DNA from: Escherichia coli
GTDB lineage: Bacteria > Pseudomonadota > Gammaproteobacteria > Enterobacterales > Enterobacteriaceae
Direction: 5' to 3' (one strand)
DNA: 64,000 nucleotides
Assembly: GCF_003790525.1 (NCBI RefSeq)
Contig: NZ_CP033635.1
The notes beneath the pieces were generated by a model. That model did no database searches, had not been told where the DNA came from, and worked only from the letters and a program-made list of their open reading frames with translations. Numbering within the stretch: position 1 is the first letter of the stretch; each line of letters starts with the position of its first letter. Shown here one piece after another: positions 16,507-63,088 of the stretch. A program made the translations under genes and the position numbers.

Positions 16507-17283
16507 TCATTTACTGCCGCTGGTGGCTGTATCGAGATGCACCACCGGGTTTTCGGCGAACAGATAGCGGTCGGCATTGAACTCGAAATCGTCGCTGGTT
16601 TCGTTAAATAACATGATCTTGGTGTTTTCCAGGTGCTGCCACATTGCCAGCTTAGCAGCATGAGGATCTTTGCGAATCAGCGCCTTGAGGATTTGATCGT
16701 GGTCATCACACCAGTTATCGACGGTACGGGCATCAATGTGTTCGTGCAGTTTTTTCCAGTACGGGTTATGACTACGCTGGGTCCACATTTTTTCAACGAT
16801 AGCCGCCAGGGCGGAGTTCTGCGTCGCCAGGGCTACCTGAATATGGAACTGCAAATCCCACTCGGAATCACGGAAGCATTGTTCGCCGCGCGCCTGCTCC
16901 TGGATGGCCATCAATTTCATGATGTCCTGTTTTGTGACCTGAGTTGCCGCGAACTCGGCAATATTACTTTCGATGAGCTGGCGGGCTTGCAGTAGCTCAA
17001 ACGGACCGTAATTGGCAAACTCCATATTATTGTCAGCCGATTGCTGATGGCGCGGCTGGTTGGAAACCACATGAATACCTGAACCTTTACGCACTTCGAC
17101 ATAGCCTTCAACTTCCAGCATGATGATGGCTTCACGAACCACGGTGCGGCTGACGTTTTTTTCATCGGCAATAAAGCGTTCGGCAGGCAGTTTATCACCT
17201 ACCAGATAGACGCCCTGTTCGATGCGCTCTTTCAGATCAGCGGCAAGTTGTTGATACAAACGGCGTGGTTCAGTGATTTCCAT
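16507..17283 (-). CDS. exuR: GntR-family hexuronate regulon repressor
   Basis: ORF 16507..17346; start at [24 protein letters not shown] (258 aa); N-terminal GntR HTH plus FCD domain. Confidence 0.9.
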
Positions 17284-17572
17284 ATGCGTCTCCAGGAGTG
17301 GAATGCGGACAAAGTTATCATACCACTTTATGCATGCGTATGCCATTGTTAAAATATAAATCGAATGATTGAAATAATATTATTTATTGATGTTATGAAT
17401 ATTAATATATTCCTAAAATTGATTATGTTGAATTGTGAAAAAACATATTTTTCAGTAGGTTGTATTTTTTTGAGAATAAATAATTTTATCTAAAGATGCT
17501 TTTTTGTGTTGACTTGAAAAATAGTATGATTTCTAATGCGCCAACTTTTTATGAAATAATTTAACTGATTAA

Positions 17573-18289
17573 ATGGTGGCGAAAATTAATCGATTATTAC
17601 GGCTCGGGCCTGTCTTACTTCTGTGCACATCATTTTTCGCACAATCTAATATGACTGTATATCCTATGTCTGTATCTATAAACAGTCAGGGAGAAGGAAG
17701 TGTTCGTGTAATATCGAAAACGAATGAAGTCCAATATATAAAGGCAACCGTATTTCGTATCGATAATCCATCAACACCACAAGAAAAAGAAATCGAAGTA
17801 ACTTCAGGCGATGCAAACCAACTTGTGATAATGCCGCCCAAATTTGCTTTGCCTGGCGGTAGTAGCAAAACCGTGCGTTTTGTGGCAATGGAACCTGAGC
17901 AAAAAGAAAAAAACTATCGGGTTAAATTTGAAGCTGTACCCAGCATTGATGATGCAACAGATAATAAAAAAGATCTCTCCATGCAATTAACGGTTAACTT
18001 AATTTGGGGGATTGTTGTCAGCGTGCCACCTCAGCAGCCTGTGGCAAAGTTAGATATTAACGCCGATAAAAAGCTAATCAATAATGGCAATCAACGTCTG
18101 AAGATATTAACCATTGCCTATTGTAAAAATAGTGGTTCTGCGGAGTGCAGAACACAGACCGTAAATAAAAACATTTTCCCTGGTCAGGAAAGAGTTTTAG
18201 AAAGCATATCTGGCTACGATAAAATCGTTGTCAAATATAATAACTGGATCACCAAGGACAATGGCGAGTTTGAGCTGGCGGTCCATTAA
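17573..18289 (+). CDS. class-5 fimbrial periplasmic chaperone (CfaA/CooB-like)
   Basis: 238 aa with signal peptide; ...NMTVYPMSVS... and ...KNYRVKFEAVPS... parallel CfaA motifs (NFMIYPIS, YRVYFEAV); first gene of a chaperone-pilin-usher-adhesin array. Confidence 0.85.
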   Translation: MVAKINRLLRLGPVLLLCTSFFAQSNMTVYPMSVSINSQGEGSVRVISKTNEVQYIKATVFRIDNPSTPQEKEIEVTSGDANQLVIMPPKFALPGGSSKTVRFVAMEPEQKEKNYRVKFEAVPSIDDATDNKKDLSMQLTVNLIWGIVVSVPPQQPVAKLDINADKKLINNGNQRLKILTIAYCKNSGSAECRTQTVNKNIFPGQERVLESISGYDKIVVKYNNWITKDNGEFELAVH

Positions 18290-18318
18290 TTATCATTGTA
18301 ATAAACCAAGGAATAGTA

Positions 18319-18819
18319 ATGAAAAAGGTATTCGCAAAATCTCTTCTGGTAGCGGCAATGTTTTCCGTTGCAGGTTCTGCATTAGCAGTACAAAAAGATA
18401 TCACTGTTACTGCTAACGTTGATGCTGCTCTGGATATGACGCAGACCGATAATACTGCACTGCCGAAGGCAGTAGAAATGCAATATCTGCCAGGTCAGGG
18501 TCTGCAATCTTACCAGTTAATGACTAAAATCTGGTCAAATGACACGACCAAAGACGTGAAAATGCAGTTAGTTTCGCCTGCGCAACTGGTTCAGAGCCTG
18601 GACGCCAGCAAAATTGTTCCGCTGACCGTAACCTGGGGTGGTGAAGAGATTAAAGCTGATGCGGCAACCACTTTTACCGCAACGAAAATCTTTGCTTCCG
18701 ATGCGTTAACTAACGGTTCGCTGGCTAAACCACTGATGTTTTCCCAGGCTACCAAAGGTGTTCTGGAAACGGGTATCTACCGTGGCGTAGTTAGCATTTA
18801 TCTGTCCCAGGCTCTCTAA
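18319..18819 (+). CDS. class-5 fimbrial major pilin (CfaB/CooA-like)
   Basis: 166 aa; signal peptide MKKVFAKSLLVAAMFSVAGSALA then VQKDITVTANVDAALD..., closely resembling the CFA/I major subunit (VEKNITVTASVDPVIDL...). Confidence 0.85.
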   Translation: MKKVFAKSLLVAAMFSVAGSALAVQKDITVTANVDAALDMTQTDNTALPKAVEMQYLPGQGLQSYQLMTKIWSNDTTKDVKMQLVSPAQLVQSLDASKIVPLTVTWGGEEIKADAATTFTATKIFASDALTNGSLAKPLMFSQATKGVLETGIYRGVVSIYLSQAL

Positions 18820-18891
18820 TCTGGATAACAGAATTAACATGCAATAAAGGGAGGCAAGTCCTCCCTTCTTTTAACTATTTTAGTATTTATT

Positions 18892-21594
18892 ATGGATTAC
18901 AGGACAGCCATGGACAAAAAATTACTGGCTCTTTTGATCCTGGCGAGTCTCAGCCCGGCAAAGGCAACATTAACAAAAATTCCCGCTGGTTTTGAGGTTA
19001 TTGCTCAGGGACAGCAGGAGTATATCGAGGTTTATTTTGCAGGGAAAAGTCTCGGTAAATATTATGCGATGGTTAATCTTGATACCGTAACCTTTCTTGA
19101 TTCATCAAGTTTATACAGCAAACTTGAATTGAGCACTGACGATCAAAAAATCGCTCATACAGTGAAAGAAAAACTATCGCAACCCTTAGCTCGCCACGGT
19201 GAACTGGCTTGTGGTTTTGTACGTACTGATTCAGGATGCGGTTTTCTTAATACTGAGACAGTAGAAATAATCTACAATGATGAAGAAAGTTCAGCAACGC
19301 TATTTCTTAATCCGCAATGGAGTTCTGCGTTTAACTCGAAGTCATTGTATTTAAATCCAGACAAAAATACGGTTAACGCTTTTATACATCAGCAAGATAT
19401 TAATGTGCTGGTACAGGATGATTACCAATCGTTGTCAATTCAGGGTAATGGCGCACTGGGAATAACAGAAAATAGCTATATTGGTGCGCACTGGAATTTC
19501 GACGGTTATGATGCAGATGATGTCAGCGACAACAATGTCGATGTCAGCGATCTCTATTACCGCTATGATTTTTTACGCCGTTATTATGTGCAGGCGGGGC
19601 GGATGGACAACCGCACATTATTTAATGCGCAAGGTGGAAACTTTACTTTTAACTTTCTGCCACTCGGTGCCATCGACGGAATGCGTATCGGGTCGACTCT
19701 CAGTTATTTAAACCAGACGCAAAGCCAGCAGGGAACGCCGGTAATGATCCTGCTTTCGCGCAATTCTCGTGTTGATGCTTATCGTAATGAACAACTGTTG
19801 GGATCGTTTTACCTCAATAGTGGTTCGCAATTTATTGATACCAGTTCCTTTCCGCCAGGCAGCTACAGCGTGGCGTTAAAAGTTTATGAAAATAACCAAC
19901 TCACCCGCACCGAGCTTGTACCGTTTACCAAAACCGGCGGTCTGACAGACGGAAATGCCCAGTGGTTCTTGCAGGCAGGTAAAACCACATCACAGGTTTC
20001 TGATGATGAAAGTTCTGCTTATCAGCTAGGCGTACGCCTGCCATTACATCCGCAATATGAGCTCTACGCAGGGCTGGCGAATGCCGATGATGTAAGTGCT
20101 TTCGAGTTAGGCAATAACTGGACGGCAGATTTAGGCGGGGCGGGGAATCTGGCTATCAGTGCCAGCGTGTTCCGTAACGATGACGGCGGCAAAGGCGATA
20201 TGCAACAGGCCAACTGGAGTCATCCGGGATGGCCGACGTTGGGCTTTTATCGGACCAACTCTGACGGTGATGCTTGTACAACCGACAACAGAGAGAGCTA
20301 CAACGCCTTAAGCTGTTATGAAAGTATTTCCGCGACGGTTTCACAGAATTTTGTCGGCTGGAATATGATGCTGGGTTATACCCGCACACAAAATAACACT
20401 GATGATAGTTTGCGCTGGGACAAACAGCAGAGCTTTGAAAATAACTATCTTCGCCAGACTTCGGCTCAAAGCATTTCCGAGACCGTACAACTTAGCGCTT
20501 CTCGCGCTTTTGTGATGCGTGACTGGATTTTGAGTACTTCCCTTGGGGTTTTCCATCGTAATGACAACGGCGGTGGTAGCGATGACAACGGTTTGTATCT
20601 GTCGTTTTCGTTATCTGATACGCCGACGATGGACAGCAATAACAACAGCCATTCAACCAATGTTTCTACTGATTATCGTTATAGCGATCAGGATGGCGAT
20701 CAAACGTCATGGCAGTTATCGCATACCTTTTATAACGACTCATTCAGCCATAAAGAGCTTGGCGTGACCGTCGGCGGTTTGAACACCGATACCATAAACA
20801 GCGCGGTTAACGGGCGTTGGGATGGCCAATATGGAAATGTCTACGCTACTGTCTCAGACAGTTATGATCGCCAGAACCATGATCATCTCTCGGCCTTCAC
20901 CGGGACATACAGCTCCACGCTGGCGGTGAGTCGCTATGGCATCAATTTGGGGGCCAGCGGCTCAGATGATTTGCTGGGAGCGGTGTTGGTGGATGTGAAA
21001 GGTTTCTCTGAACAGGATGAACAGAGTCAGGGTCTGCAACTCGAAGCGCGGGTGGCTGGCAGCAGAACATTGCAGCTTGGTCAAAGCGACAGCGTGTTAT
21101 TCCCCTATCCTGGATTTCAGTCTGGCTTTGTTGAAGTTAACGACAGTAATCAGGGTAACCAGCAAGGAACAACCAACATCATTAACGGTGCGGGAAATCG
21201 TGAGTTAATGCTGTTGCCGGGCAAATTACGTTATCGCGAAGTGTCTGCCAGTTTTAATTACAACTATATTGGTCGTTTGTTATTGCCCGCATCGGTAGAG
21301 AAATTCCCGCTGGTGGGTCTGAATAGCGCCATGTTACTGGTGGCTGAAGATGGCGGATTCACACTTGAGATCAGCAGTGGTGAAAAAGAGTTGTATCTGC
21401 TTTCCGGGCAGCAGTTCCTGAAATGTCCGCTGAATGTTTTGAAGAAACGCGCCAGCATTCGCTATAGCGGGGATGTGAATTGTAGCGTGGTGAGTTATTC
21501 ACAATTGCCGGAATCTATTCAGGTTCAGGCACAGTTGAAACAGCCTAAATTACGTGGAAACGTCCAGACGGCGCAAAGGGAGGTTGCACCATGA
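18892..21594 (+). CDS. class-5 fimbrial outer-membrane usher (CfaC/CooC-like)
   Basis: 900-aa ORF with signal peptide, about the size of CfaC, between pilin and adhesin genes; start may be the second Met at 18910. Confidence 0.85.
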   Translation: MDYRTAMDKKLLALLILASLSPAKATLTKIPAGFEVIAQGQQEYIEVYFAGKSLGKYYAMVNLDTVTFLDSSSLYSKLELSTDDQKIAHTVKEKLSQPLARHGELACGFVRTDSGCGFLNTETVEIIYNDEESSATLFLNPQWSSAFNSKSLYLNPDKNTVNAFIHQQDINVLVQDDYQSLSIQGNGALGITENSYIGAHWNFDGYDADDVSDNNVDVSDLYYRYDFLRRYYVQAGRMDNRTLFNAQGGNFTFNFLPLGAIDGMRIGSTLSYLNQTQSQQGTPVMILLSRNSRVDAYRNEQLLGSFYLNSGSQFIDTSSFPPGSYSVALKVYENNQLTRTELVPFTKTGGLTDGNAQWFLQAGKTTSQVSDDESSAYQLGVRLPLHPQYELYAGLANADDVSAFELGNNWTADLGGAGNLAISASVFRNDDGGKGDMQQANWSHPGWPTLGFYRTNSDGDACTTDNRESYNALSCYESISATVSQNFVGWNMMLGYTRTQNNTDDSLRWDKQQSFENNYLRQTSAQSISETVQLSASRAFVMRDWILSTSLGVFHRNDNGGGSDDNGLYLSFSLSDTPTMDSNNNSHSTNVSTDYRYSDQDGDQTSWQLSHTFYNDSFSHKELGVTVGGLNTDTINSAVNGRWDGQYGNVYATVSDSYDRQNHDHLSAFTGTYSSTLAVSRYGINLGASGSDDLLGAVLVDVKGFSEQDEQSQGLQLEARVAGSRTLQLGQSDSVLFPYPGFQSGFVEVNDSNQGNQQGTTNIINGAGNRELMLLPGKLRYREVSASFNYNYIGRLLLPASVEKFPLVGLNSAMLLVAEDGGFTLEISSGEKELYLLSGQQFLKCPLNVLKKRASIRYSGDVNCSVVSYSQLPESIQVQAQLKQPKLRGNVQTAQREVAP

Positions 21595-22685
21595 GAAATC
21601 GATTAATTGCCGTGATTTTATGTTTATTTGGCATGGTCGCGGGGGGGCACGCTACGCCAAATGTGACGGCTGAAATTACTTATGATTTGGCCGCTGGTAG
21701 GGCGGATTATTACTTCTGGAATAGGGAAGATCCCCCCGCAGTAAGCTACAACACGACATGGTCAAGTTATAAATGCGATTTTCCTGATGTGCAGCAGACC
21801 TGTACCGCATCAGGAAATTTATCAACAGTGAAAATATATTTGACAGAAAAACGCAGTGGAATGCGTTGGCCCGTCAAACTCAAAGGCTATGTTGATGCGG
21901 AGGTCTGGAACCCGGGTGGAGTCTGTAACGGATGGTCGACGCAAATCGCGTTAGCTAACGGTACGGGTTATCAATGTAAAAGTGCTTCAGACGGTTATAT
22001 ACAACATCTTGCGAGCGCAAAGCCGATGACGCTCTATCTTGAACAGTCCGAAATGAAAAATTTACCAATCGGTGGTGTTTGGGAAGGTTCGGTCAAATTG
22101 CAGTTTACTAATCCGTCTACGGATTATCGCGCCGATATTACGCTTAATGTCCTCGATCCCAACCATATCGACGTGTTCTTCCCGGAGTTCGCCCACGCTA
22201 CGCCACGCGTACAACTGGATTTGCATCCAACAGGCAGCGTTAACGGCAACAACTACGCGCAAGATCTGACTATGTTGGATATGTGCCTGTACGATGGCTT
22301 TAACGGTAACGGTCTTAGCTATGAAATTTTGCTAAAAGATGAGGGAAGAACGGCGGCAGGACGCAGTAATGGTGAGTTTTCGATTTATCGTCAGGGCGCG
22401 AGCTCAACGGATGAAGGGGAGCGTATTGATTACCGTGTCAAAATGTACGACCCGGAATCAGGTGGGCAAATCGATGTGCGCAACAATGAGAGCATGGTCT
22501 GGACCAACATCAACCTTAAACGTGTCCGCCCGGTGGTGCTTCCAGGCATTCGTTACGCTGTGATGTGTGTTCCCACACCGCTGACGCTGGTGGTCGACAA
22601 ATTTAACGTGACGGCAAAACAGGCGGGATATTATATGGGTAAATTGTCGGTCATCTTTACCCCGTCATTGCCGACAATCAATTGA
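21591..22685 (+). CDS. class-5 fimbrial minor subunit / tip adhesin (CfaE/CooD-like)
   Basis: 364 aa; start overlaps the usher stop (ATGA); motifs LPIGGVWEGSVKL, DLHPTGS, DMCLYDGF and C-terminal AGYYMGKLSVIFTPSLPT parallel CfaE (LPFGGVWNAVLKL, RPTGGG, DMCFYDGY, AGQYMGNIKITFTPSSQTL). Confidence 0.82.
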   Translation: MRNRLIAVILCLFGMVAGGHATPNVTAEITYDLAAGRADYYFWNREDPPAVSYNTTWSSYKCDFPDVQQTCTASGNLSTVKIYLTEKRSGMRWPVKLKGYVDAEVWNPGGVCNGWSTQIALANGTGYQCKSASDGYIQHLASAKPMTLYLEQSEMKNLPIGGVWEGSVKLQFTNPSTDYRADITLNVLDPNHIDVFFPEFAHATPRVQLDLHPTGSVNGNNYAQDLTMLDMCLYDGFNGNGLSYEILLKDEGRTAAGRSNGEFSIYRQGASSTDEGERIDYRVKMYDPESGGQIDVRNNESMVWTNINLKRVRPVVLPGIRYAVMCVPTPLTLVVDKFNVTAKQAGYYMGKLSVIFTPSLPTIN

Positions 22686-22700
22686 CCTCGCAGACCAGAA

Positions 22701-22739
22701 AAAACTAAACAACGAAGCCGCCTGAAGAGGCGGCTTCGT
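22701..22739 (-). terminator. rho-independent terminator downstream of exuT
   Basis: Hairpin cgaagccgcc-tgaagag-ggcggcttcg followed on the minus strand by a T-rich tract, directly after the exuT stop. Confidence 0.5.
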
Positions 22740-22760
22740 CATTACAACTTACGTTAATTC

Positions 22761-24059
22761 TTAATGTTGCGGTGCGGGATCGTTATGTGATTCCTGCGCC
22801 ACCTCAATCGCCGGTTTGTTCTGCAATACCGTCCAGATAACCAGTGCCCCCAGTAGGTCGAATACCGCAAGTACTGCGAACAGCGGGCTAAAGCCGATGG
22901 TGTCAGCCAGTGCACCAACCACCAGAGCAAAGAGCGTACTTGCCAGCCATGCGGACATCCCGGTTAAACCGTTCGCCGTCGCCACTTCGTTACGACCGAA
23001 CACGTCAGAAGAGAGCGTAATCAGTGCGCCAGACAGTGCCTGGTGAGCAAAACCACCGATACACAGCAGCATAATCGCGACATACGGGTTGGTGAACAGA
23101 CCGATCATACCCGGGCCAATCATCAGCACAGCACCCAGCGTTACGACCATCTTACGGGAAACGATCAGGTTCACACCAAACCAACGCTGGAACAGCGGCG
23201 GCAGGTAACCACCGAGGATACAACCGAGGTCAGCAAACAGCATCGGCATCCAGGCAAACATCGCGATCTCTTTCAGGTTAAAGCCGTAAACTTTAAACAT
23301 GAACAGCGGGATCCACGCGTTAAAAGTACCCCATGCCGGTTCTGCCAGGAAGCGCGGCAGCGCGATACCCCAGAACTGACGGTTGCGCAGGATCTGACCA
23401 ACGGACATTTTCTTCGCTGTGTCAACCTGGTGCTGGGCTTCCTGACCATTAATAATGTAGTCGCGTTCTTCATCGGTCAGATGTTTCTGGTCGCGCGGAT
23501 GCTTGTAGAAAATCAGCCATGCCATCGCCCAGATAAAGCTCAACGCACCGGAGATGATAAATGCCATCTGCCAGCTGTGCATCACGATTGCCCATACCAC
23601 CAGCGGCGGCGCAATCATCGCACCAATCGAAGAACCTACGTTAAAGTAACCTACCGCGATGGAACGCTCTTTCGCCGGGAACCATTCGGAGCTGGCTTTC
23701 AGACCCGCCGGAATCATCGCGGCTTCCGCGGCACCGACCGCACCACGAGCAACCGCCAGGCCACCCCAACTACCTGCCAGCGCGGTTGCACCACAGAACA
23801 CGGCCCACAGTACAGCAAACATTGCATAACCGATTTTCGTACCCAGCACATCCAGTACATAACCCGCTACCGGTTGCATGACCGTATAAGCAGCAGAATA
23901 CGCTGCGATGATATAGGAATACTGTTGGGTGGAGATGTTTAACTCTTCCATCAGAGTTGGCGCAGCTGCCGCCACAGTGTTACGCGTCAGGTAACCAAGC
24001 ACGGTGCCGAGCGTCACCAGTGCGATCATATACCAACGTAACCCTTTAATTTTACGCAT
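22761..24059 (-). CDS. exuT: hexuronate transporter (MFS)
   Basis: ORF 22761..24179; start taken at MRKIKGLRWYMIALVTLG (432 aa) by K-12 recall; the 40-codon N-terminal extension is rejected. Confidence 0.88.
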   Translation of the reverse strand: MRKIKGLRWYMIALVTLGTVLGYLTRNTVAAAAPTLMEELNISTQQYSYIIAAYSAAYTVMQPVAGYVLDVLGTKIGYAMFAVLWAVFCGATALAGSWGGLAVARGAVGAAEAAMIPAGLKASSEWFPAKERSIAVGYFNVGSSIGAMIAPPLVVWAIVMHSWQMAFIISGALSFIWAMAWLIFYKHPRDQKHLTDEERDYIINGQEAQHQVDTAKKMSVGQILRNRQFWGIALPRFLAEPAWGTFNAWIPLFMFKVYGFNLKEIAMFAWMPMLFADLGCILGGYLPPLFQRWFGVNLIVSRKMVVTLGAVLMIGPGMIGLFTNPYVAIMLLCIGGFAHQALSGALITLSSDVFGRNEVATANGLTGMSAWLASTLFALVVGALADTIGFSPLFAVLAVFDLLGALVIWTVLQNKPAIEVAQESHNDPAPQH

Positions 24060-25954
<1,895 letters not shown>

Positions 25955-52205: not shown

Positions 52206-52253
52206 TGGTGGCCCCTGCTGGACTTGAACCAGCGACCAAGCGATTATGAGTCA
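52206..52253 (-). other. ileX: 3' partial copy (about 47 nt) of tRNA-Ile2 (ileX, CAU anticodon): island att junction
   Basis: Minus-strand read gives ...GACTCATAATCGCTTGGTCGCTGGTTCAAGTCCAGCAGGGGCCACCA, i.e. anticodon loop, T-arm, acceptor 3' strand and CCA. The 5' half (acceptor/D-arm) is absent; the upstream sequence diverges. Confidence 0.75.
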
Positions 52254-52378
52254 TGAGGCAAGTTCGTTCTATATTGTTTTTGTTTGTTCGTGATTGCTTT
52301 ATTAGTTGTTTGTAATCAATAAATTATGTGATTTTCCCTGTCTCCGCTTGGTTCCGTTTTTTCTTCATTGTACGATCG

Positions 52379-52402
52379 TTACCTGACCCATTACCTGACC
52401 CA
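52379..52402 (+). repeat. tandem 12-bp direct repeat (ttacctgaccca x2) upstream of int
   Basis: Two exact adjacent copies about 47 bp upstream of the integrase ATG, within the island-side arm of the att junction. Confidence 0.6.
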
Positions 52403-52448
52403 AAATCACGAGTTATTCTGATTGTTACTGGTTTAGAAAAGAGGTTCT

Positions 52449-53765
52449 ATGGCCGTCAATCTTACTGAAACAGCCATCCGAGCATTGAAAGCAAAAAAGA
52501 CATCGTTCTATGTCTGGAGCAACAGCTCTCAACGTGGCACTGGACGACTTGGTGTCAAAGTTCAGCCTTCTGGCAGCAAGATTTTCTATTTCCGCTATTA
52601 CGTGGAAAAAGGGAAAAAAGAAAGATTCATTCAATTGGGTATATGGCCTGAGATGAAACTGGCCACAGCGAATGAACTGACAAAAAAGTATGGTGCCTGG
52701 CTCATTGAAGGAAAGGATCCCCAGGCAGAACTGGAACGACAACAGTTTGCAGAACAGCAGCGGATACAACTCCATCAATCACAGGGCTCATTTGAAGCAT
52801 TGATTCATGGTTATGTTAACAAAATGAAAATTGATAATAAGAGGACATGGCAGGATGTTCTGAAACGCCTTGAAAATGAATGCTATACAGTGATCCCCCG
52901 TGAAACTAAAGCTAAAGATGTGACTTCCGGACAGATTAAACATATCCTGGCCGGGATCATTCAGCGCGGTGCTGTGGTTCACTCTAACCGGATCCGTTCT
53001 TACCTGATGGCTGCATTTAACTATGGACTGAAAGCAGATAACGATCCGATGAACACAAGTGTAGGGATTACTTTTGGGCTGGAGGCAAATCCGGTGTCAG
53101 TGATACCGAAACAGTCATCTGCTGAAAAAGTCGGTGATACCTGGCTGACACTTGAAGAGTTGCGTTTTCTAATGGAACATTTTGCTGAAGCAACCAACGT
53201 TGGATTATTGATGCAACATTTGATCCGATTCTGTATCTATACCGGAGGGCAACGTCCTTTCGAAATGATCGCCAGTCAGTGGTGTGATGTTGATTTTCAA
53301 CAAAAAACGCTGCTGGTGACTGCTGATGTCTCTAAAAATAAACGAGAGCATTTGATACCGTTGACTGAATCAGCATTACAGGAATTATCCTGTGTGCAGG
53401 AGTTAACAAAAGAAAAATCCAGCCCTTACATTTTTCCACTTTCGACTAATGGTAAGCGTCCGGTTCGTACGGACAGTCTGGCTCGCGCTATCATGTATTT
53501 CCGGGCTTTTAATCCTGACTTTAAAATTTTTACAGCACGTGACTTACGTCGGACCTGTAAAACGTTAATGGGAGAAGCTGGGATCAGTAAGGAAATCCGC
53601 GATCGTATTCAAAATCATGCGTTGAACGATGTCAGTTCAAAACATTATGATCGATACGATTATTTGCCAGAAAAACGCAGAGCACTTGAGATCTGGGAGG
53701 ACCGGGTTAATAACTATCAACAGCAAACAGGCAATAATGTTGTCAATCTGTTTGGCAGAAGGTGA
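52449..53765 (+). CDS. P4-type tyrosine recombinase / phage integrase
   Basis: 438-aa ORF MAVNLTETAIRALKAKKTSFYVWSNSSQRGTGRLGVKVQPSGSKIFYFRYYV... (typical N-terminal arm-binding region of P4-like integrases); the C-terminal region contains R, H and Y residues compatible with a tyrosine-recombinase catalytic core; adjacent to the tRNA fragment. Confidence 0.9.
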   Translation: MAVNLTETAIRALKAKKTSFYVWSNSSQRGTGRLGVKVQPSGSKIFYFRYYVEKGKKERFIQLGIWPEMKLATANELTKKYGAWLIEGKDPQAELERQQFAEQQRIQLHQSQGSFEALIHGYVNKMKIDNKRTWQDVLKRLENECYTVIPRETKAKDVTSGQIKHILAGIIQRGAVVHSNRIRSYLMAAFNYGLKADNDPMNTSVGITFGLEANPVSVIPKQSSAEKVGDTWLTLEELRFLMEHFAEATNVGLLMQHLIRFCIYTGGQRPFEMIASQWCDVDFQQKTLLVTADVSKNKREHLIPLTESALQELSCVQELTKEKSSPYIFPLSTNGKRPVRTDSLARAIMYFRAFNPDFKIFTARDLRRTCKTLMGEAGISKEIRDRIQNHALNDVSSKHYDRYDYLPEKRRALEIWEDRVNNYQQQTGNNVVNLFGRR

Positions 53766-53894
53766 GGGAGTTCCTGGTTGCTGTACGAATTGTGTACAAT
53801 TGATGGGTATTGTTGATGCACTTGGTTCTTGTATTGTTTACTATAATTATTGAGGTAAATTTTCGTGCCGGTATTACTCAGAGGGGATTCAAAA

Positions 53895-54491
53895 ATGGCT
53901 GTAATTCCAATGTCTTACTCCCCTGCTACTGTAGCTCGTCGTTTTTCGATACTGGATGGAGTAACTATTCAGGGCGTGCTTTACCAGATCATCTGGGATC
54001 CAAAGACTCCGTTTGCTGCGGTAATCGAAGCTGCACCTTCTGTTATTGATGGTGATGTTCGCCATAAGGTTGTTGCCACTCTGGAGCTTCAGCGTCGTCC
54101 CCGGCTTGAAGGCGTGTTTGTCCAGAAATTCTGGGAAGAACAGGATGTTGCTCAGATTGAAGGGATTGTTGTCGATGGCGCTGTACGTGATGTTGGTCTT
54201 GCAACGTTTGTTTATGAAACGATAGTCACAAAAGCGGGCGTTGTACTATTAAGTGATAACGAGCAATATGAAGGAGGTAAAGCTCTCTGGCAGCATATTG
54301 CGCGTCGTTCAACGAATCTGAAGGTGTTTATTTTAGATACTGATTCCGCACGGTATTACCCGTTTGATGGCGAACGGATCAGTTATGACGGGAAAAGCAT
54401 CCCGGAATCAGAAATCTGGAGTGAACATCCTGAGCGAAACAGACACGCTGTCGTTCTTGTGGCTGAATCTGTTAATGGTAAAGCCGCATAA
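53895..54491 (+). CDS. hypothetical protein (198 aa), integrase-proximal cargo
   Basis: ORF 53865..54491; ATG at 53895 has a good SD (agagggga). No family recognised; an R-x-x-G-x-A stretch (VRDVGLA) is only faintly reminiscent of GNAT motif A. Confidence 0.55.
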   Translation: MAVIPMSYSPATVARRFSILDGVTIQGVLYQIIWDPKTPFAAVIEAAPSVIDGDVRHKVVATLELQRRPRLEGVFVQKFWEEQDVAQIEGIVVDGAVRDVGLATFVYETIVTKAGVVLLSDNEQYEGGKALWQHIARRSTNLKVFILDTDSARYYPFDGERISYDGKSIPESEIWSEHPERNRHAVVLVAESVNGKAA

Positions 54492-54573
54492 TTTGCTGAG
54501 TGTCTCATTTTTTGAGATCTTGCTGGAAAGTCTCCTTTGGGGATAGCGAACTGCTATCCCCTTTCTCAGTGAG

Positions 54574-56178
54574 TTACTGTTCGACCAGACATTTTCCCCA
54601 TAAAGGTCGTATCGAGTATCTATCTTCGCTATATGGATTTATTTTATTTTTTTCCCTCTGTGCTATCAGCAACGTGTCGATCTCATCCTTAATAATGTGT
54701 TGAACTGCTTGACGGTAACGGTTAAGCGAAGTGTCACTGATATCTTGTGGAAGTTGTAGACTGCCATCTGCCTTGACAAGTTCATTTACACCATCTTTAA
54801 TTCTGCGTCCCTGACCATCAGGTATACCTTCATTCAGATCATAGCCTTTTAGTCCTGCAAGACGAATATTCACGTCAATCTTTTCTGTACGTATCTTTTT
54901 GTTACTTACCAACAGAATTTTATTGGCGTTATACCATTTTTCAAATATTTCCAGTTGTTTCATGATGTTTGTGAAGTTATTCAGTTCGCTCCTGAATTCA
55001 ATAGATTTTCTAATTTTACGCTCTTTTGCATCAATGTTTATTCCTGGATAATTTATTTCCATTTTTAACGGTTCTGTGTATGCCTGTTGCAGGCAATCAG
55101 CAAGATTCATTGCTGCATCCTGCAGGGTATTGGTATAAATCAGTTTCAGAAGTTCATCACGCTGTATAGTGATTTGACAATAGTCTTTTTCCCATGCGGT
55201 GGTGTTTTCAATCGTGTCACTTTCATCGGAAATAATTGTTGTGAACTTCCAGGTGTAACGAATAAAATCATTTCCTTTAAAATATTGCACTAATTTATTT
55301 AACCATTCATATATTTCCAGAGCATAAAGTTTAACGTATCCATCATATATTATCTTTGTTGCATTTTTGTTGGCTAGCGAAAACATTTTGTCCACGAATT
55401 CTGTACGCCCGATTGTTAGCAATTGTTTTCTAAGTTTACTCACATCGTTAGTATCTGGTTTCTCACAATTCCAGGGACTTTTGTATTCATTTTCAAAAGG
55501 AGAAAGCCATTCAGGAATCTCTGTTTCTGAGTGATAGCAGTTGTTAATAGCCAAACCAAGGGTTCTGGCAAGTATCGCTGATTCATCAATTTGATGGTAT
55601 CGGTTCAGTTGTTCCAGTAATTCTTTAGTACATGAGTGCGCAACAGAAAGATCCTGATGGCAATATCCTTGTCGAACCAGAGCGGGAAGTGGTGAGCAAT
55701 GAGCTTTACAATCTGTCAGAATATTGAACAAATCGTTTCTGACGAATTCTTCCATCTCAGGTGTTTTCCAGCCACCACTATTTTGGCCGACAAATTTTGC
55801 TGTTGGTTCCCTGTTCATATCTCCCCAGGTTTTCAGGCTGACGAGTCTGTTATCAAAACCATTGTATAAATGGCACATAACCTGAAAAGCAGCATACAGA
55901 TCTTTAGATAGTGGATTATCGGTCTCACTTATGGAGTAGTTCTCTCTGTTTTTCTCTAAAATACTTTGGAGTTTTGTGTTAGCGCGTAATGCCGAGAGAA
56001 TCCGATGTTGTTCATCAAACCAAGGACGATATTCTGGATCCAGATACAATCTGCGTGCTTTGAAAATGAGTAGAAGCAACTGTTCGGAAACAGCTTCATG
56101 TATGTGGGGAAACGGCATGGAGGTGCCGGATAAAACACGATAGTACGGGTGGTTTGTTTTTACCTTTTTAGTTACCAT
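54574..56178 (-). CDS. hypothetical protein (about 514-534 aa), AT-rich, convergent with the 198-aa gene
   Basis: Long uninterrupted ORF with Lys/Asn/Glu/Tyr-rich, low-GC composition. No Walker A, HEPN, PD-(D/E)xK or TM signature recognised by eye. Alternative start at Met21 (56118). Confidence 0.6.
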   Translation of the reverse strand: MVTKKVKTNHPYYRVLSGTSMPFPHIHEAVSEQLLLLIFKARRLYLDPEYRPWFDEQHRILSALRANTKLQSILEKNRENYSISETDNPLSKDLYAAFQVMCHLYNGFDNRLVSLKTWGDMNREPTAKFVGQNSGGWKTPEMEEFVRNDLFNILTDCKAHCSPLPALVRQGYCHQDLSVAHSCTKELLEQLNRYHQIDESAILARTLGLAINNCYHSETEIPEWLSPFENEYKSPWNCEKPDTNDVSKLRKQLLTIGRTEFVDKMFSLANKNATKIIYDGYVKLYALEIYEWLNKLVQYFKGNDFIRYTWKFTTIISDESDTIENTTAWEKDYCQITIQRDELLKLIYTNTLQDAAMNLADCLQQAYTEPLKMEINYPGINIDAKERKIRKSIEFRSELNNFTNIMKQLEIFEKWYNANKILLVSNKKIRTEKIDVNIRLAGLKGYDLNEGIPDGQGRRIKDGVNELVKADGSLQLPQDISDTSLNRYRQAVQHIIKDEIDTLLIAQREKNKINPYSEDRYSIRPLWGKCLVEQ

Positions 56179-56957
56179 AATGTTAAATTCTTCCGTCTAT
56201 TGCATAGCTGTTTCCAGTAGAGAAACTTGATACAGTCCTTTGTCAGGACATTGATACAGAGTTAACAGCCTCTACGAAATGGGAATCAGTTATGCAGTGG
56301 CATTATACGATGCTGAATCTAATACGATATCCTTAGCGTTTATTCCTGATTTTTTTACGAGCATTCCCTTTTGTTGCATATTGCTCAGGACGCAAATGAT
56401 TTTACGGTTATAGCCCTCTACAGTCACGTCACTTTCATCTGAAAATATGTATCGTTTTCATTCAATTATTATCTTTTGTCTGCACTTTAGCTTTAGAAAG
56501 TTGGCAAAAATCAACTCCCTCTTACAAGTTCTATTATCGCCAGAAGATAATTTTGTGAACTTCGTCACGTTTTCAAACTAATGTTGTGGGGGCTTTTCTG
56601 GGGAGAATTTTTGGTCACTACCCCTCCTCTTGATATCATAGATTATAACAAGATTTTTTTTGTTTTTGTCTGCATAAAATAACCTACGAATATTGTGATT
56701 TTGATTTTTATTTTGTATACCAAAAAGCATTGTTTAAGTTATTTTTATATTGTGACTTTCTTTGTTGTTATTGTGTTATTAGAAGTCAGTTAATTAAATC
56801 ATTTCTCACAATTTGATTTCTTGGTTGTGCAAATGTATTGTTTTGCTCGTGAGTTGCTGGTGCTGTTCAACAGCATACCACTACAGATAGATGTAGTGAT
56901 TTGAGCAGCTCACATGCATATACAATCTGAAAATCATGAATATATAAGGAGAGCAAT

Positions 56958-57185
56958 ATGTGGAAGCCGTTAAGAGATGAGAACCGTTTATCAATTTTGA
57001 AGATCTATGGATACACCTGTGACAGACTGGTACGAGAAAAGGAACGCCAGAAAATTACGTCTATTTCTCGTTCACAAGCCTGGAAACTGGAACGTGAAGG
57101 AAAATTCCCGCCACGTAAAACTATTGGAAAGAAATCCTGTGGGTGGTTATTAAGTGATCTATTGTGGTGGATTAGTCAGTATTAA
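56958..57185 (+). CDS. AlpA-family phage/island transcriptional regulator
   Basis: 75-aa ORF MWKPLRDENRLSILKIYGYTCDRLVREKERQKITSISRSQAWKLEREGKFPPRKTIGKKSCGWLLSDLLWWI: typical AlpA/Prophage_CP4-57 regulator pattern; strong SD (aaggag). Confidence 0.75.
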   Translation: MWKPLRDENRLSILKIYGYTCDRLVREKERQKITSISRSQAWKLEREGKFPPRKTIGKKSCGWLLSDLLWWISQY

Positions 57186-57247
57186 CCTTATAGTATCAGA
57201 ATAATATATATTTCTATATTTTAATTTTATAATTAAAAAGGAGTTTC

Positions 57248-57994
57248 ATGATGAAACGTGTCTCTTTCTCTCTTGCAGAAACATATGAAGCTGATGTAAT
57301 TAAAAAGTATCAGCATTTAAAAAAATGCTCATTTTCAGCAGCGATTAAAGAGTGTTTAAAGCTAGGGGCTCCTGTTTTAAACAGGATAAATGAAAATATT
57401 GCTGCTATAACTGATATAGAGGATAAGCTACGTCAGTTTTTTAATGAGGAACCATTTGTGCAACGGACAAAGCCTGAAATAACAAAAGGAGAGTTTTTTC
57501 ATAGCATTTATAAATCGCATATCAAATATGAATATGATGTTCTCGATAGAAAGATATTTCCTCATGAAAGCACCAGAAATGCTATGGGAGTTGCAGAGAA
57601 AAAGGGAATTAAAGAGAATGCGACCTTAATGCTGGAATATTATAAAGTTGAGAAGGCAATTTGTATTTACACGAACAGAAAAGTTTCCCATACCCTGAAT
57701 CGTGCAGGAGGGTTTTATAAAACCATTCTGATTAAAACCAGTGTTTTTGGGGATTATTTTTTTGACTTTTGCAATTCAGTTTGCCTGCCGATAGATGAGT
57801 TGATTGAGTATGGTACGAAAGAAACAGTGAGGCGACATCAGATTCGTAGTACAGGATTTTGTACTTTTCATATTCCGATTTTTTATATCAATAATAAGGC
57901 TGTAATAGTGCCTGTTCTGAGAACAGAGGAAGTTTCACAAAGTTCCAGAACAGGTGGAGATGTTATTATTATTAACCCATTTGAAGATGAATGA
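57248..57994 (+). CDS. hypothetical protein (248 aa) with possible N-terminal RHH-like segment
   Basis: N-terminus MMKRVSFSLAETYEADVIKKYQHL resembles the beta-strand-helix start of ribbon-helix-helix proteins; remainder unassigned; SD aaggag. Confidence 0.55.
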   Translation: MMKRVSFSLAETYEADVIKKYQHLKKCSFSAAIKECLKLGAPVLNRINENIAAITDIEDKLRQFFNEEPFVQRTKPEITKGEFFHSIYKSHIKYEYDVLDRKIFPHESTRNAMGVAEKKGIKENATLMLEYYKVEKAICIYTNRKVSHTLNRAGGFYKTILIKTSVFGDYFFDFCNSVCLPIDELIEYGTKETVRRHQIRSTGFCTFHIPIFYINNKAVIVPVLRTEEVSQSSRTGGDVIIINPFEDE

Positions 57995-58215
57995 TTATGG
58001 CCCGCGTAGATTTATTCATAACCCAGAAATCGTGGTGTAAATGATGAACAGAAACCGCTTTCTGAGGTTAAAGAGAGCAATCATTACCCGGGAGTGGCCA
58101 ACTCTTTTATCGAGTACTTTTCCGATGTATCTGGAGAGCCTCCCTTAGAAAAGAGTAATGCGACTCAGGAAAAAACAGGTTCAATAATTAATTCATGACA
58201 CCAGTTTGAGGCATT

Positions 58216-58776
58216 ATGGCGAGTTTTGCATACATAGACTCTGAAAAATGGTCAAAACTTAATCGCTTAAAATCCATGATTCAGAGATATTTTAAAGAAC
58301 CACTATTGCAGTTAACAGGCGAATTGGGTCGCCCGGATTATACTCTGGCAGACAGAAAACGGTTAGTTCGACTCCTGACGCAGGATATGCAAAGGGGTGA
58401 TATTCTGATTACTAAATCGTTAACTTGTTTTGGTAATACGCCGGAAAAAATACAGGAGGTTTTATCTTTAAGTATCAGACAAGGTATTAATATTTGCTTT
58501 TTTACGTCATCAGAGTTGCCGGATGGTGATGATATTCCTGTGGTACTCACCGGGATGATTTTACCTACAGATATTAGAGGAAAAATTCCCGACATCAGTA
58601 TCCGGAAAATTAAAAGAAAACCAGGAAGGAAAGAAGGGAGTATTCATAGTAAAAATATCAGACAGTTGAAATTGCAGGGGTTCAGTCAGTCACAAACAGC
58701 CAGAAAATTAAGCATCAGTTTATCCACTGTAAAAAGACACTGGGATAAAGGTATTGTTGATCTAACTGCAGAGTAA
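58216..58776 (+). CDS. serine-recombinase (resolvase/invertase)-like protein with degenerate catalytic motifs and C-terminal HTH
   Basis: 186 aa; MASFAYIDSEK.. parallels resolvase MxxIGYxRVST.. and GDILITKSLTCFGN parallels GDxLVVxKLDRLGRS, but the conserved Arg/Asp residues are replaced; C-terminal GFSQSQTARKLSISLSTVKRHW is resolvase-type HTH. Confidence 0.55.
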   Translation: MASFAYIDSEKWSKLNRLKSMIQRYFKEPLLQLTGELGRPDYTLADRKRLVRLLTQDMQRGDILITKSLTCFGNTPEKIQEVLSLSIRQGINICFFTSSELPDGDDIPVVLTGMILPTDIRGKIPDISIRKIKRKPGRKEGSIHSKNIRQLKLQGFSQSQTARKLSISLSTVKRHWDKGIVDLTAE

Positions 58777-59041
58777 CATTTTATAGTCCTTGTAGCTATT
58801 GGCAATGGAGTTATAAATACATGTGCGTTGGATAGGTAATATATATTATATCTGTGATGTATAGTATATGTGTAATGATGGATATGATGTACTAATAGAG
58901 CTAATGGTATTCTGATACCAAATAATTAGTTGTGTGTAGATCATAACTCTGTTTAATGTTTTAGAACGTTCTAATGTAACTGTGTAACATCATCCTGTTC
59001 TCTAATGTAACAATAGGCAGTAGCGTTTTTCTTAATTGACG

Positions 59042-59067
59042 CCCAGAGGGTTATATATCCCTCTGGG
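59042..59067. promoter_or_regulatory. perfect palindrome cccagaggg-ttatatat-ccctctggg
   Basis: 9-bp inverted arms separated by an 8-bp AT spacer, about 90 bp upstream of the 204-aa gene; flanked by direct repeats of tctaatgtaac. Confidence 0.4.
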
Positions 59068-59157
59068 AACTACTGATACGAATATTAATATCTGCTTCTG
59101 TTGTGTATTGGGTAGGTTAACTATTAGCTTATCTCTGAAAGCAAAAGGAATATTAAC

Positions 59158-59772
59158 ATGATTACGATTGAAACTCTTTACGGTGAATGTCATGAGGCTC
59201 ACGGGTTAAAAATAAGAAACCAGGTGAATAACCTCTTCCAGAAACATCCCAGAATAACGGCAATACGGGTGGATCTCCATTATCCTCCCGTGATTGACAA
59301 CGGGGATACCATTACCTGTTTTCCTAACCTGAGTCCCGGAGAGATATCTCGTTTCCGTAACTCGCTGAATGCGAAAATTAATGCAGATCAACACCGTAAA
59401 AAACAACAAGGCAAACGCACCTACGCAACGTCGGTTTGTATTATCTGGGCGAAAGAATATACGCAGTCCTTTAAATGTCATTATCACGTCTGCCTTTTTT
59501 TTAACAAAGACGCCTATTACCACCTGGGAGACTATGAGCGCTCTGACACCCTGAGAGGGTTAATTACCGGAGCCTGGTACAGTGCCTTAGGGTTAGAACT
59601 GGAAGATCACCAGGGACTAGTTCATTTCCCTGCTAATGGACGTTACATCCTGGATATTAACGATCCTGATTTCCCTGAGCAATATCAGCGCTTATTGGCA
59701 CGTCTGGATTATCTGACGAAGCTCGACACTAAAGCATCAGGCCAGCGTAACTTTGGCTACAGCGGTTTTTGA
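59158..59772 (+). CDS. HUH-endonuclease (rolling-circle Rep / inovirus Gp2-like, YagK/YfjJ-type) protein
   Basis: 204 aa; contains KCHYHVCLFF (H-u-H motif) and a downstream DYLTK (YxxK-type candidate catalytic Tyr); genomic context matches CP4-type prophage modules. Confidence 0.55.
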   Translation: MITIETLYGECHEAHGLKIRNQVNNLFQKHPRITAIRVDLHYPPVIDNGDTITCFPNLSPGEISRFRNSLNAKINADQHRKKQQGKRTYATSVCIIWAKEYTQSFKCHYHVCLFFNKDAYYHLGDYERSDTLRGLITGAWYSALGLELEDHQGLVHFPANGRYILDINDPDFPEQYQRLLARLDYLTKLDTKASGQRNFGYSGF

Positions 59773-59799
59773 CCTATTGTAACTGTAAGGTGATTTATT

Positions 59800-60366
59800 A
59801 TGTATACAGAATCAAACGTTAAGCTTTCCTGTAACGCCCTCTGGCAAAAGTATGTCCTTGCAACTCTGTATCGGGCTGCAGCTACACATCCTAAAATTAA
59901 ATTATTACAATTTAAATTAATACCTTGCCCAGGTATGAACAAGGCAATTCCCTCTCTGATGGCTGATTTTACTGGTGAACTGCATAGACTAATTTCTGAA
60001 TATTTGCAGTGCAAGCGACGTAAAGATAAATCTGTTGAGCCCGCCCCTTTATATTATCTCTGGAGTAGGGAAGCTGTGGCTAACGATACCACTCCTTATC
60101 TTATGGTACTGCTACTTAATAACGATGTCTGGTGTAAGAGTCGTGAGGTGGTGGCTCTCAGAAATCTGATTGAGCAGGCGTGGGGAAAAGTATTGGACGA
60201 AGATAACTCCATTACACATCAGGTTGTGTATCCTGAAGTGCTGTCGTTGGTATTTGATGCAGCTAACACATACAACGCTGAGCCTGGTGTACTGGAACAG
60301 ACGGCCCAGGCTTACATTGAATCGCATGGTGCCATTGAACGTCATCTTGGGTGTAGTGACTTTTAA
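59800..60366 (+). CDS. paralog of the preceding HUH/Gp2-like gene with degenerate HUH motif
   Basis: 188 aa; aligns by eye to the upstream gene (HPRITAIRVDLHYP vs HPKIKLLQFKLIP; HYHVCLFFNKDAY vs PYLMVLLLNNDVW; LRGLITGAWYSALG vs LRNLIEQAWGKVLD), but the two His of the HUH motif are lost. Confidence 0.5.
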   Translation: MYTESNVKLSCNALWQKYVLATLYRAAATHPKIKLLQFKLIPCPGMNKAIPSLMADFTGELHRLISEYLQCKRRKDKSVEPAPLYYLWSREAVANDTTPYLMVLLLNNDVWCKSREVVALRNLIEQAWGKVLDEDNSITHQVVYPEVLSLVFDAANTYNAEPGVLEQTAQAYIESHGAIERHLGCSDF

Positions 60367-60561
60367 CGACGTCAGGTGATGCATAAGGGCCTTTCGCTGA
60401 GAGGCCCTGTTTACACAATTAAATAAGTCGAACCCGACCAGCAATTTTGACGTTGACGGCAGGATTATTGAGGGGCAATCAATGTGTTCTTCGGCAGCGA
60501 TTACGGTAGTGAACGGACCTGCTGTCTGAATGGTATCGATCCGCAAGCGTATCTGCGCCAT

Positions 60562-61650
60562 TGGATTTGCCCCTATATTTCCAGACACCTGTTATCACTT
60601 AACCCATTACTGGCCCGCTGCCGTAGATATTCCCGTGGCGAGCGATAACCCAGTGCACTATGCGGATGCCATTCGTTATAATGCTCGAACGCCTCTGCAA
60701 GGTTCTTTGCTGCCGTTAACCCGTCTGGTTTGGGCATGATACTGATGTAATCACGCTTTATCGTTTTCACGAAGCTCTCTGCTATGCCGTTACTCTCCGG
60801 ACTCCGCACCGCCGTGTTCTTCGGTTCAAGTCCCAGCATCCGGGCGAACTGGCGTGTTTCATTAGCCCGGTAGCATGAACCATTATCCGTCAGCCACTCC
60901 ACTGGAGATGTCGGAAGCTCGCTGCCGAAGCGGCGTTCCACCGCTCCCAGCATGACGTCCTGTACTGTTTCACTGTCGAAGCCGCCCGTAGTGACCGCCC
61001 AGTGCAGTGCCTCACGGTCACAGCAGTCCAGCGCGAACGTGACCCCCAGTTTTTCTCCGTTATCACAGCGGAACTCGAACCCGTCAGAGCACCATCGTTG
61101 ATTGCTTTCTTTCACGGCCACTTTGCCAGTATGTGCCCGTTTCGATGGCGGTACAGCGGTTTTTCGCTCAAGCAACAGCGCATTCTGGCGCATGATCCGG
61201 TAAACACGTTTGGCATTGATAGCAGGCATACCATCAAGTTCGGCCTGTCTGCGAAGCAGCGCCCATACCCGACGATAACCATACGTGGGCAGCTCTCCGA
61301 TAACATGGTGTATACGGAGAAGCACATCCGTATCATCTGAGTGACGGCTGCGGCGACCATCTTTCCAGTCATCGGTTCGTCTGAGAATGACGTGCAACTG
61401 CGCACGCGACACCCGGAGACAACGGCTGACTAAGCTTACTCCCCATCCCCGGGCAACAAGGGAGACCGTCATTCCCGGTTCAAAGCTCTGCTGAACAATA
61501 GCGATCTTTTCCTGTGTAGTACGCCGTCTGCGTTTCTCCGGCCCTAAGACATCAATCATCTGTTCTCCAATGACTAGTCTAGAAACTAGTATTAAGACTA
61601 TCACTTATTTAAGTGATATTGATTGTCTGGAGATTCAGGGGGCCAGTCTA
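60562..61650 (-). mobile_element. IS2 (IS3 family) with internal deletion of about 240 bp
   Basis: IS2 terminal sequences recognised at both ends (minus-strand 5' TAGACTGGCCCCCTGAATCTCCAGACAA... and ...GGGGCAAATCCA 3'). Length about 1089 bp versus 1331 bp for intact IS2. Confidence 0.85.
60573..61559 (-). CDS. insCD: IS2 transposase derivative: in-frame fusion of InsC N-terminus (about 37 aa) to InsD
   Basis: Product [37 protein letters not shown]|[24 protein letters not shown]... with DDE integrase core. The junction lies between similar VAR/IAR codons; the native -1 frameshift region is missing. Confidence 0.8.
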
Positions 61651-61984
61651 TATATCAATTAATCATTAGTTTAAAAGCTTGTTCAACTGCATACATCATT
61701 AGCGTTTAAGCCAGTGAACAGGAAGTTTACTGGCTTAATTACAGTAATATAGTGTATCGCTATGCTCACTGAGTCTTAGATCTCCACCGTCGGTCTAATA
61801 TTCGCACTCCTGCTAACAACCGGTAATCAAATCGTCCTCCGGTATTGAAAGTTAATACACAAATCAGGATGATGGAGGCTCATACTGGTACAGCGCGACC
61901 ACTTATGCAGGCGTCTCTGTCAGGTTTGTTGCCCGGATCACCCGCATCAGGGACAGGGCTGTTCAGTTATCCGCAGGAGAAAAT

Positions 61985-62995: not shown

Positions 62996-63088
62996 TTTTT
63001 AATCCCGCTCACAAATTCGAATCGTTTCGGTTGCTATCCGAAACGATTCGGATCAACAGTAAGGCATACCCGAAAACGGAGATGTCTT

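Follow-up and report, generated by a model that had tools for sequence, protein, structure and literature searches.

The divergent control region between exuR and a CS1-like fimbrial operon of Escherichia coli

Gene content of the exuR-exuT locus

The DNA analysed, hereafter the window, is a stretch of 64 kb from an Escherichia coli chromosome, of which positions 1-52252 match strain SC516 at 99.99-100% identity. Its gene order comprises exuR on the minus strand, an intergenic spacer of 289 bp (17284-17572), four genes on the plus strand (17573-22685), exuT on the minus strand, and uxaCA (Table 1). The spacer is therefore flanked by two divergent genes, exuR and a fimbrial chaperone gene, as an initial sequence-only reading of the region had stated. 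All four plus-strand genes have Pfam matches. On these matches, they constitute an alpha-clade, or class 5 (CFA/I-type), chaperone-usher operon encoding a chaperone, a major pilin, an usher and a CblD/CfaE-type minor subunit, and the RefSeq names agree; the assignment of the chaperone gene to this family in the sequence-only reading was thus correct. The usher also matches TcfC (1.2e-20) and CooC_C (25.9 bits, slightly below the 29-bit Pfam cut-off).

Table 1 Features of the exuR-exuT locus. Positions are those of the window; P-up and P-down are candidate promoters of the fimbrial operon.
Feature	Position	Strand	Evidence
exuR, GntR/FCD-family hexuronate repressor	16507..17283	-	RefSeq annotation of SC516; Pfam GntR and FCD
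exuR leader, predicted operator and promoter module	17284..17346	-	92-98% column identity over 7 alleles; 46% G+C
ExuR-box-like palindrome AAGTTATCATACCACTTT	17312..17329		13/18 match to UxuR/ExuR operator AAATTGGTATACCAATTT; invariant in 7/7 alleles
Extended -10 TGgTATGAT, predicted exuR promoter	17317..17325	-	Invariant in 7/7 alleles
-35-like ATGGCA (TTGGCA in L010), 18 bp upstream of the exuR -10	17341..17346	-	Promoter scan and conservation
A/T-rich upstream region of the fimbrial operon, presumed H-NS target	17347..17572	+	19.5% G+C
Invariant 8-mer ATTCCTAA	17409..17416		About -55 relative to P-up; statistically marginal
P-up, TTGTGA-17 bp-TAGGTT	17433..17461	+	Sole plus-strand sigma-70-like pair kept in position in 7/7 alleles
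Rns/AggR-like box ATAATTTTATC (W7TATC)	17480..17490	+	Perfect match; 0.53 expected per shuffle
P-down, TTGACT-17 bp-TCTAAT	17509..17537	+	9.97 bits; both hexamers invariant in 6/7 alleles, absent in L010
TATGAT of the sequence-only reading	17525..17530	+	10 bp after TTGACT (17509-17514); only in window-type alleles
Fimbrial periplasmic chaperone (eafA/CS1-like)	17573..18289	+	Pfam PapD_N, 3.5e-08
CS1-type major pilin	18319..18819	+	Pfam Fimbrial_CS1, E = 1.2e-23
TcfC/CooC-type usher	18910..21594	+	Pfam Usher_TcfC, E = 1.4e-59; start as annotated
CblD/CfaE-type tip adhesin or initiator	21591..22685	+	Pfam CblD, E = 1.8e-97
exuT terminator hairpin, retained on the exuT side of the operon	22715..22736		Alignment with K-12-type empty site
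exuT	22761-24059	-	Gene-order map

The operon has already been catalogued, and the spacer that it shares with exuR is a divergent control region of an ordinary kind. It was described as the "CS1-like" operon ECSE_3375-3378 in the SE11 genome, with further copies in E24377A, HS, ATCC 8739, 536 and SMS-3-5 (PMC2608844), and as eafABCD, located between exuT and exuR, in the genome of E. coli W (PMC3032704). The four-gene order and the exuT-exuR position are the same here, with no difference at the level of the operon. The E. coli W paper states that the eaf cluster has no tip adhesin (PMC3032704); contrary to this, the product of the fourth gene is clearly homologous to CblD/CfaE, and RefSeq also names it a CfaE/CblD tip adhesin. 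In an RNA-seq study of Shiga toxin-producing E. coli (STEC), expression of the usher and of the major subunit was higher in strains associated with haemolytic uraemic syndrome (HUS) (PMC6033998). The published descriptions that we found cover the genes, their distribution and this one RNA-seq signal, and none of them deals with the promoter or the regulation of eaf.

Two further observations concern the borders of the locus and of the window. Between the fimbrial operon and exuT (22686-22760), the two transcription units converge on a single hairpin. As the T-run of this hairpin is confined to the exuT side, transcripts of the pilus operon could run on into exuT in the antisense direction. At the far end of the window, collinearity with SC516 stops at 52252, beside a tRNA-Ile gene. 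The remainder (52253-64000) matches further strains, among them CP8-3_Sichuan and J-8, at 100%. Its genes comprise those for an integrase, an IS3 transposase and an alpha-galactosidase as well as hypothetical ones, and patches of low G+C are found at about 54.8-59 kb. This segment looks like a tRNA-associated island.

Distribution and age of the operon

A full-length match to the operon, at 88-100% DNA identity, is present in 1,905 of 5,426 complete E. coli genomes (about 35%), whereas K-12-type genomes exhibit a 129-bp exuT-exuR spacer and no operon. The 289-bp spacer itself matches 1,921 genomes, with at least 80% of its length covered in 1,912 of them, and these matches fall into discrete classes: about 240 genomes have a spacer of the window type, with 90% identity or more, and 1,682 lie in a band of 60-80% identity, in which the sampled rows were 78.7% or 74.3-74.6% identical. 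In all the genomes matched, the operon is accompanied by a distinct allele of the exuR leader. In one partial match that we examined (L007; NZ_CP116411.1, strain HH45, 630-1200), several hundred bases consisting only of G and T occupy the expected start of the operon, immediately upstream of exuR, and represent an artefact of assembly or polishing.

When one genome per species was scanned, the chaperone was found only in Escherichia, and the lineages L010, L011 and L012 all have exuR beside the operon. The two matches outside the genus were set aside. Both are on short contigs, one a Lachnospiraceae MAG contig with exuR and the chaperone (L013) and the other a 426-bp chaperone piece in Bradyrhizobium sp. 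RP6 (L014), and their chaperones are 85-87% identical; contamination of those assemblies is most likely. In both exuR and exuT, substitutions are concentrated near the operon indel, which fits an old haplotype comprising the operon and the exuR leader rather than a recent insertion.

Composition and modular structure of the spacer

The spacer is A/T-rich, with 25.3% G+C over its 289 bp and 23.4% in 17300-17572, as compared with 49.8% in the whole window. The 273-bp stretch with the lowest G+C content of the 64 kb is 17327-17599 (22.0%), and 0.06% of such stretches are as low. The sequence-only reading had described an almost entirely A/T leader. All the strings it quoted are found in the sequence and the richness in A/T is real, but the description is too strong (about 77% A+T) and does not apply to one uniform leader. 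The spacer comprises two modules: the 63 bp on the exuR side (17284-17346), with 46% G+C, and the 226 bp on the fimbrial side (17347-17572), with 19.5%. The low G+C content (<40%) spans about 1 kb and runs into the chaperone gene. In all alleles compared, the last 226 bp before the chaperone gene contain 19.5-25.7% G+C.

To describe conservation, we aligned seven distinct alleles of the spacer. The column identity of the exuR module (Table 1) is higher than that of the rest of the spacer, in which it ranges from 47 to 86%. Runs invariant in all seven alleles are found in the exuR module at 17299-17310, 17312-17329 and 17340-17345 (ATGCCA). In the A/T-rich part, the invariant blocks are ATTCCTAA, TTTCAGTA (17450-17457) and AACTTT (17543-17548). 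Both ATTCCTAA and TTTCAGTA are retained even in the very diverged L010, in which TTTCAGTA occurs twice, although their invariance is statistically marginal. The sequence ATTCCTA matches the right half of the RcsAB box, the left half of which is missing.

The predicted exuR promoter and operator

The sequence-only reading had expected an exuR promoter on the minus strand of this segment, and one is indeed predicted. The pair (A/T)TGGCA-18-TGnTATGAT (17346..17317) keeps its position in all seven alleles, with a minimum score of 9.5 bits, and overlaps the palindrome AAGTTATCATACCACTTT. The left 63 bp would thus contain an extended -10 element and a weak -35 element, ATGGCA, overlapped by an ExuR-box-like palindrome, and we consider pair and palindrome together to be the predicted promoter and operator of exuR. 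The reported UxuR/ExuR operator sequence is AAATTGGTATACCAATTT (PMC8092373). The K-12-type exuR box matches this sequence at 14 of 18 positions, one more than the palindrome of the window. The palindrome is also identical at 15 of 18 positions to a box in the exuT-uxaC spacer of the same window (24291-24308). ExuR would therefore be expected to bind at 17312-17329. As the palindrome lies over the promoter, exuR should still be autoregulated, as in K-12.

The resemblance to the autoregulated exuR promoter of K-12 is one of arrangement rather than of sequence. The gene is the same, the left half of the operator, AAAGTGGTAT, is shared, the TGn of the extended -10 is at the same place, and the Shine-Dalgarno sequence CCTGGAG is the same; AAAGTGGTAT and the Shine-Dalgarno sequence are all that the two leaders have in common. 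In contrast, the -10 hexamer (TATAAC in K-12, TATGAT here), the right half of the operator, the 5' untranslated leader, the -35 element and all of the upstream sequence differ. In addition, exuT and its terminator are here 5.4 kb from exuR, beyond an operon that is convergent with exuT. The earlier suggestion that the insertion altered exuR regulation is consequently supported in one respect, since the leader is a distinct allele. On the other hand, this allele has an operator, a -10 and a -35 that are highly conserved, and the arrangement is old, being found across Escherichia lineages. The regulation of exuR may differ in strength from that of the K-12 type, within an architecture that appears intact and is strongly conserved.

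Candidate promoters of the fimbrial operon

As exuR is transcribed away from the spacer, no upstream read-through into the operon is expected, and the promoter of the operon should lie in the spacer, probably within 17347-17572. That such a promoter exists is indicated by the eaf transcripts detected in STEC. Promoter-like matches are, however, not above chance for DNA of this composition. With a position weight matrix (PWM), the best plus-strand score was 10.78 bits, as compared with 10.88 +/- 1.67 bits in dinucleotide shuffles, and 14 candidates reached at least 6 bits, as compared with 10.2. A consensus promoter scan gave 6 sites where 3.2 +/- 1.9 were expected. Consensus matches alone are thus no evidence here, and the candidates rest on conservation: every allele was scored with the PWM, and sigma-70-like pairs kept in position in the seven alleles were then selected, in an alignment that may be anchored on the same matches.

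The only plus-strand pair kept in position in every allele is P-up, comprising TTGTGA (17433-17438) and TAGGTT (17456-17461). Across the alleles it reads TTG[T/C]G[A/G]-17-TA[A/G][G/C]TT, with a minimum of 6.5 and a mean of 7.6 bits, and it overlaps the invariant TTTCAGTA. In the window allele it is weak (7.8 bits, with a -10 matching at 3 of 6 positions), although it has the critical TTG, TA and final T. Transcription from P-up would start near 17468 and produce an A/U-rich leader of about 105 nt. The second candidate, P-down, has a higher score and would start near 17544. Its -10 hexamer, TCTAAT, exhibits a C in place of the A at -11, which is the most critical base of a -10 element, and the consensus scan rejects the pair for this reason; the -10 is probably defective.

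The promoter named in the sequence-only reading, TTGACT followed by TATGAT, does not hold. Both hexamers exist, but they are 10 bp apart, whereas a sigma-70 promoter tolerates a spacer of 15-19 bp, and the consensus scan (spacers of 16-18 bp) did not report the pair. Furthermore, TATGAT is allele-specific, being replaced by ACACAT or CTACAT in the majority alleles. In other alleles (L011, and the equivalents of 17480-17520 in L005 and L012), a good -10 hexamer, TACAAT, is found directly after TTGACT, where the window allele reads TGAAAA. This suggests promoter turnover between alleles.

Regarding translation, no Shine-Dalgarno sequence was found before the ATG of the chaperone gene (17573). 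A CGCCA (17539-17543), about 30 nt 5' of this ATG, could base-pair with UGGUG or UGGCG in the start-codon region. This pairing is weak (5 bp, -4.3 kcal/mol) and shows no convincing covariation among alleles, and we did not retain a conserved leader RNA structure. Rfam families were also absent from the region at E <= 1. Two small open reading frames (42 aa, 17365-17493; 22 aa, 17496-17564) were rejected, as stop codons interrupt them in other alleles.

Comparison with Rns-dependent and phase-variable systems

The eaf operon belongs to the same fimbrial class as CFA/I (cfaABCE) and CS1 (cooBACD) of enterotoxigenic E. coli (ETEC) and shares with them an A/T-rich upstream region and a TATC-type box. 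In contrast to these plasmid-borne operons, eaf is chromosomal; its chaperone is 37% identical to CfaA and 32% to CooB, and the last 226 bp upstream contain 19.5% G+C, as compared with 33.6% for cfaA. For Rns, the published core is TATTTTTTTATC; the proximal site adjoins the -35, and the distal one is placed 70 bp further upstream, on the opposite strand (PMC2579436). The AggR box, W7TATC, lies 21-23 bp upstream of the -10 (PMC6392122). In the upstream region of cfaA, our positive control, this layout is found as GTTTTTTTATC-21-TATTAT. In the window allele it is not: 18 bp separate TTGACT from the box upstream of it (17480-17490), which is centred near -59.5 and not beside the -35, and no -10-like hexamer is found 21-23 bp downstream of the box, where the sequence reads ACTTGA/CTTGAA/TTGAAA. 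A minus-strand TATC-type site that could serve as the distal partner some 70 bp upstream is absent from 17284-17572, and the only other plus-strand TATC-type site (17309-17319) is inside the ExuR box. The TATC of the box is present in only three of the seven distinct alleles, the majority allele (about 1,680 genomes) exhibiting TAAC. In contrast, the allele L011 does show the layout, with W7TATC-23-TACAAT (L011 2415-2455).

No AraC/Rns-like gene is present among the annotated genes of 1-52252, nor by product name in 52253-64000. The Rns-type antisilencing proposed in the sequence-only reading is not supported in the window allele. Two other comparisons were uninformative or set aside. The CfaD regulon determined by RNA-seq in ETEC H10407 (PMC5554520) does not inform on Rns dependence of eaf, as H10407 has an empty exuT-exuR site. 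The plasmid pCoo (L019, NC_007635.1) was not used as a CS1 promoter control: a qacE-like integron segment (280-720) lies just upstream of cooB, with no native CS1 promoter region.

Known switches of other fimbrial operons were also considered. A Pap-type Dam/Lrp switch was rejected, as no GATC site is present in 17284-17572. With regard to a fim-type invertible element, the inverted repeats I1-I3 are short, A/T-rich chance matches or are not conserved, one arm being the TATGAT region, and no recombinase gene was found near the locus. Slipped-strand variation was likewise discarded, since the T7, T6 and A6 tracts are identical in length in four window-type alleles.

H-NS and DNA curvature

H-NS represses CFA/I, and CfaD antagonises this repression (reviewed in PMC9820224). 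The composition of the eaf upstream region is that of H-NS-silenced xenogeneic DNA, with 19.5% G+C over 226 bp and less than 40% for about 1 kb in a window of 49.8%. The H-NS motif TCGATAAATT has a 9/10 match at 17584-17593, and the spacer itself holds two 8/10 matches, about as many as shuffles do (1.42); TATC boxes likewise do not exceed shuffles. The sequence-only reading had called the leader curved. With a wedge model, the estimated curvature of 17400-17550 is 11-13 degrees per turn, above the window mean of 7 but equal to that of shuffles of the same sequence, so that no special curvature is apparent. On composition, silencing of the operon by H-NS is plausible.

Discussion

Based on these observations, we propose that the spacer is a two-part control region, comprising an intact exuR promoter and operator on one side and, on the other, a weak but conserved fimbrial promoter in A/T-rich DNA that is probably silenced by H-NS. 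We assign this reading a probability of about 65%. The core promoters would be intrinsically weak and embedded in DNA of the composition preferred by H-NS, which would occupy it under ordinary conditions and keep the operon silent; expression would then need some anti-silencer or activator, with a promoter layout that, in the window allele, does not appear to be that of Rns-, CfaD- or AggR-dependent promoters. The closest parallel is provided by the cryptic chaperone-usher operons that K-12 carries (yad, yeh, ybg, yra, sfm and others), which are also chromosomal and low in G+C, have weak promoters and lack a linked regulator. Korea and colleagues are said to have found in 2010 that H-NS silences these operons. 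They belong to the gamma or pi usher clade, whereas eaf belongs to the alpha clade and is absent from K-12. Nevertheless, by analogy, the mode of the K-12 cryptic operons is most likely how the eaf operon works.

Which plus-strand promoter fires is something we infer from conservation, and the proposed reading leaves room for an alternative in which P-down is the working promoter, with a leader of about 29 nt, and is activator-dependent, the C at -11 holding it inactive unless it is assisted by a factor or a mutation. We regard this as possible, though rather doubtful. P-down is the highest-scoring conserved pair, with a near-consensus -35 and an optimal spacer; its hexamers have been kept in six of seven alleles although the sequence between them diverges, and its closeness to the gene resembles cfaA. 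It nevertheless lacks the critical A, is rejected by the consensus scan, and is missing altogether from L010, which retains the operon. The original proposal, in which TTGACT (17509) and TATGAT (17525) form an H-NS-silenced promoter activated by an Rns/CfaD-type AraC protein as in CFA/I and CS1, appears highly improbable. Each of its hexamers scores well by itself (7.1 and 6.5 bits), the W7TATC box is perfect, the ETEC members of the same alpha/class 5 family are Rns-dependent, and the L011 lineage has a suitable box and -10. Against it, the 10-bp spacing refutes the pair and TATGAT is not conserved; the box, which is expected by chance and reads TAAC in the majority allele, is misplaced relative to TTGACT and has neither a -10 at 21-23 bp nor a distal partner; no annotated gene of the window is Rns-like; and the carriers are mostly commensals.

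The spacer could also be devoid of a dedicated regulated promoter, the operon being a decaying, essentially unexpressed relic with spurious transcription from A/T-rich DNA. The chance density of promoter-like sites, the absence of a Shine-Dalgarno sequence before the chaperone gene, the fast divergence of the spacer (to 74.6% identity within E. coli) and the IS insertions in the locus of some genomes (H11) are in line with this possibility. It is nonetheless unlikely: the four genes are intact here, 1,905 genomes and three further Escherichia lineages carry full-length matches, conserved blocks remain in the diverged spacer, and transcripts varying between strain groups have been reported (PMC6033998). 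A more far-reaching idea, and a very unlikely one, is that the pilus operon and the exuR leader form one old, co-inherited Escherichia haplotype that wires hexuronate sensing to pilus expression. If this were true, ExuR bound at 17312-17329, about 105 bp upstream of P-up and at the edge of the A/T tract, could set the boundary or the nucleation point of an H-NS filament, adhesion would be modulated by hexuronates (galacturonate or glucuronate) derived from mucus or pectin, and ATTCCTAA and TTTCAGTA would be sites for some further regulator.

Returning to the two-part control region, a fimbrial cluster acquired by horizontal transfer is expected to have upstream DNA that is A/T-rich and probably silenced by H-NS, and nothing here suggests an unusual mechanism. 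The analysis corrects the promoter pair initially named and replaces it with two conservation-backed candidates that can be tested by point mutations. It also indicates that the exuR module is intact but a different allele from that of K-12, and that the Rns-type layout, absent from the window allele, is present in one related lineage (L011). As this uncharacterised adhesin operon is present in about one third of the complete E. coli genomes, the mechanism by which it is switched on is relevant to colonisation by commensal strains and by avian pathogenic E. coli (APEC) and STEC.
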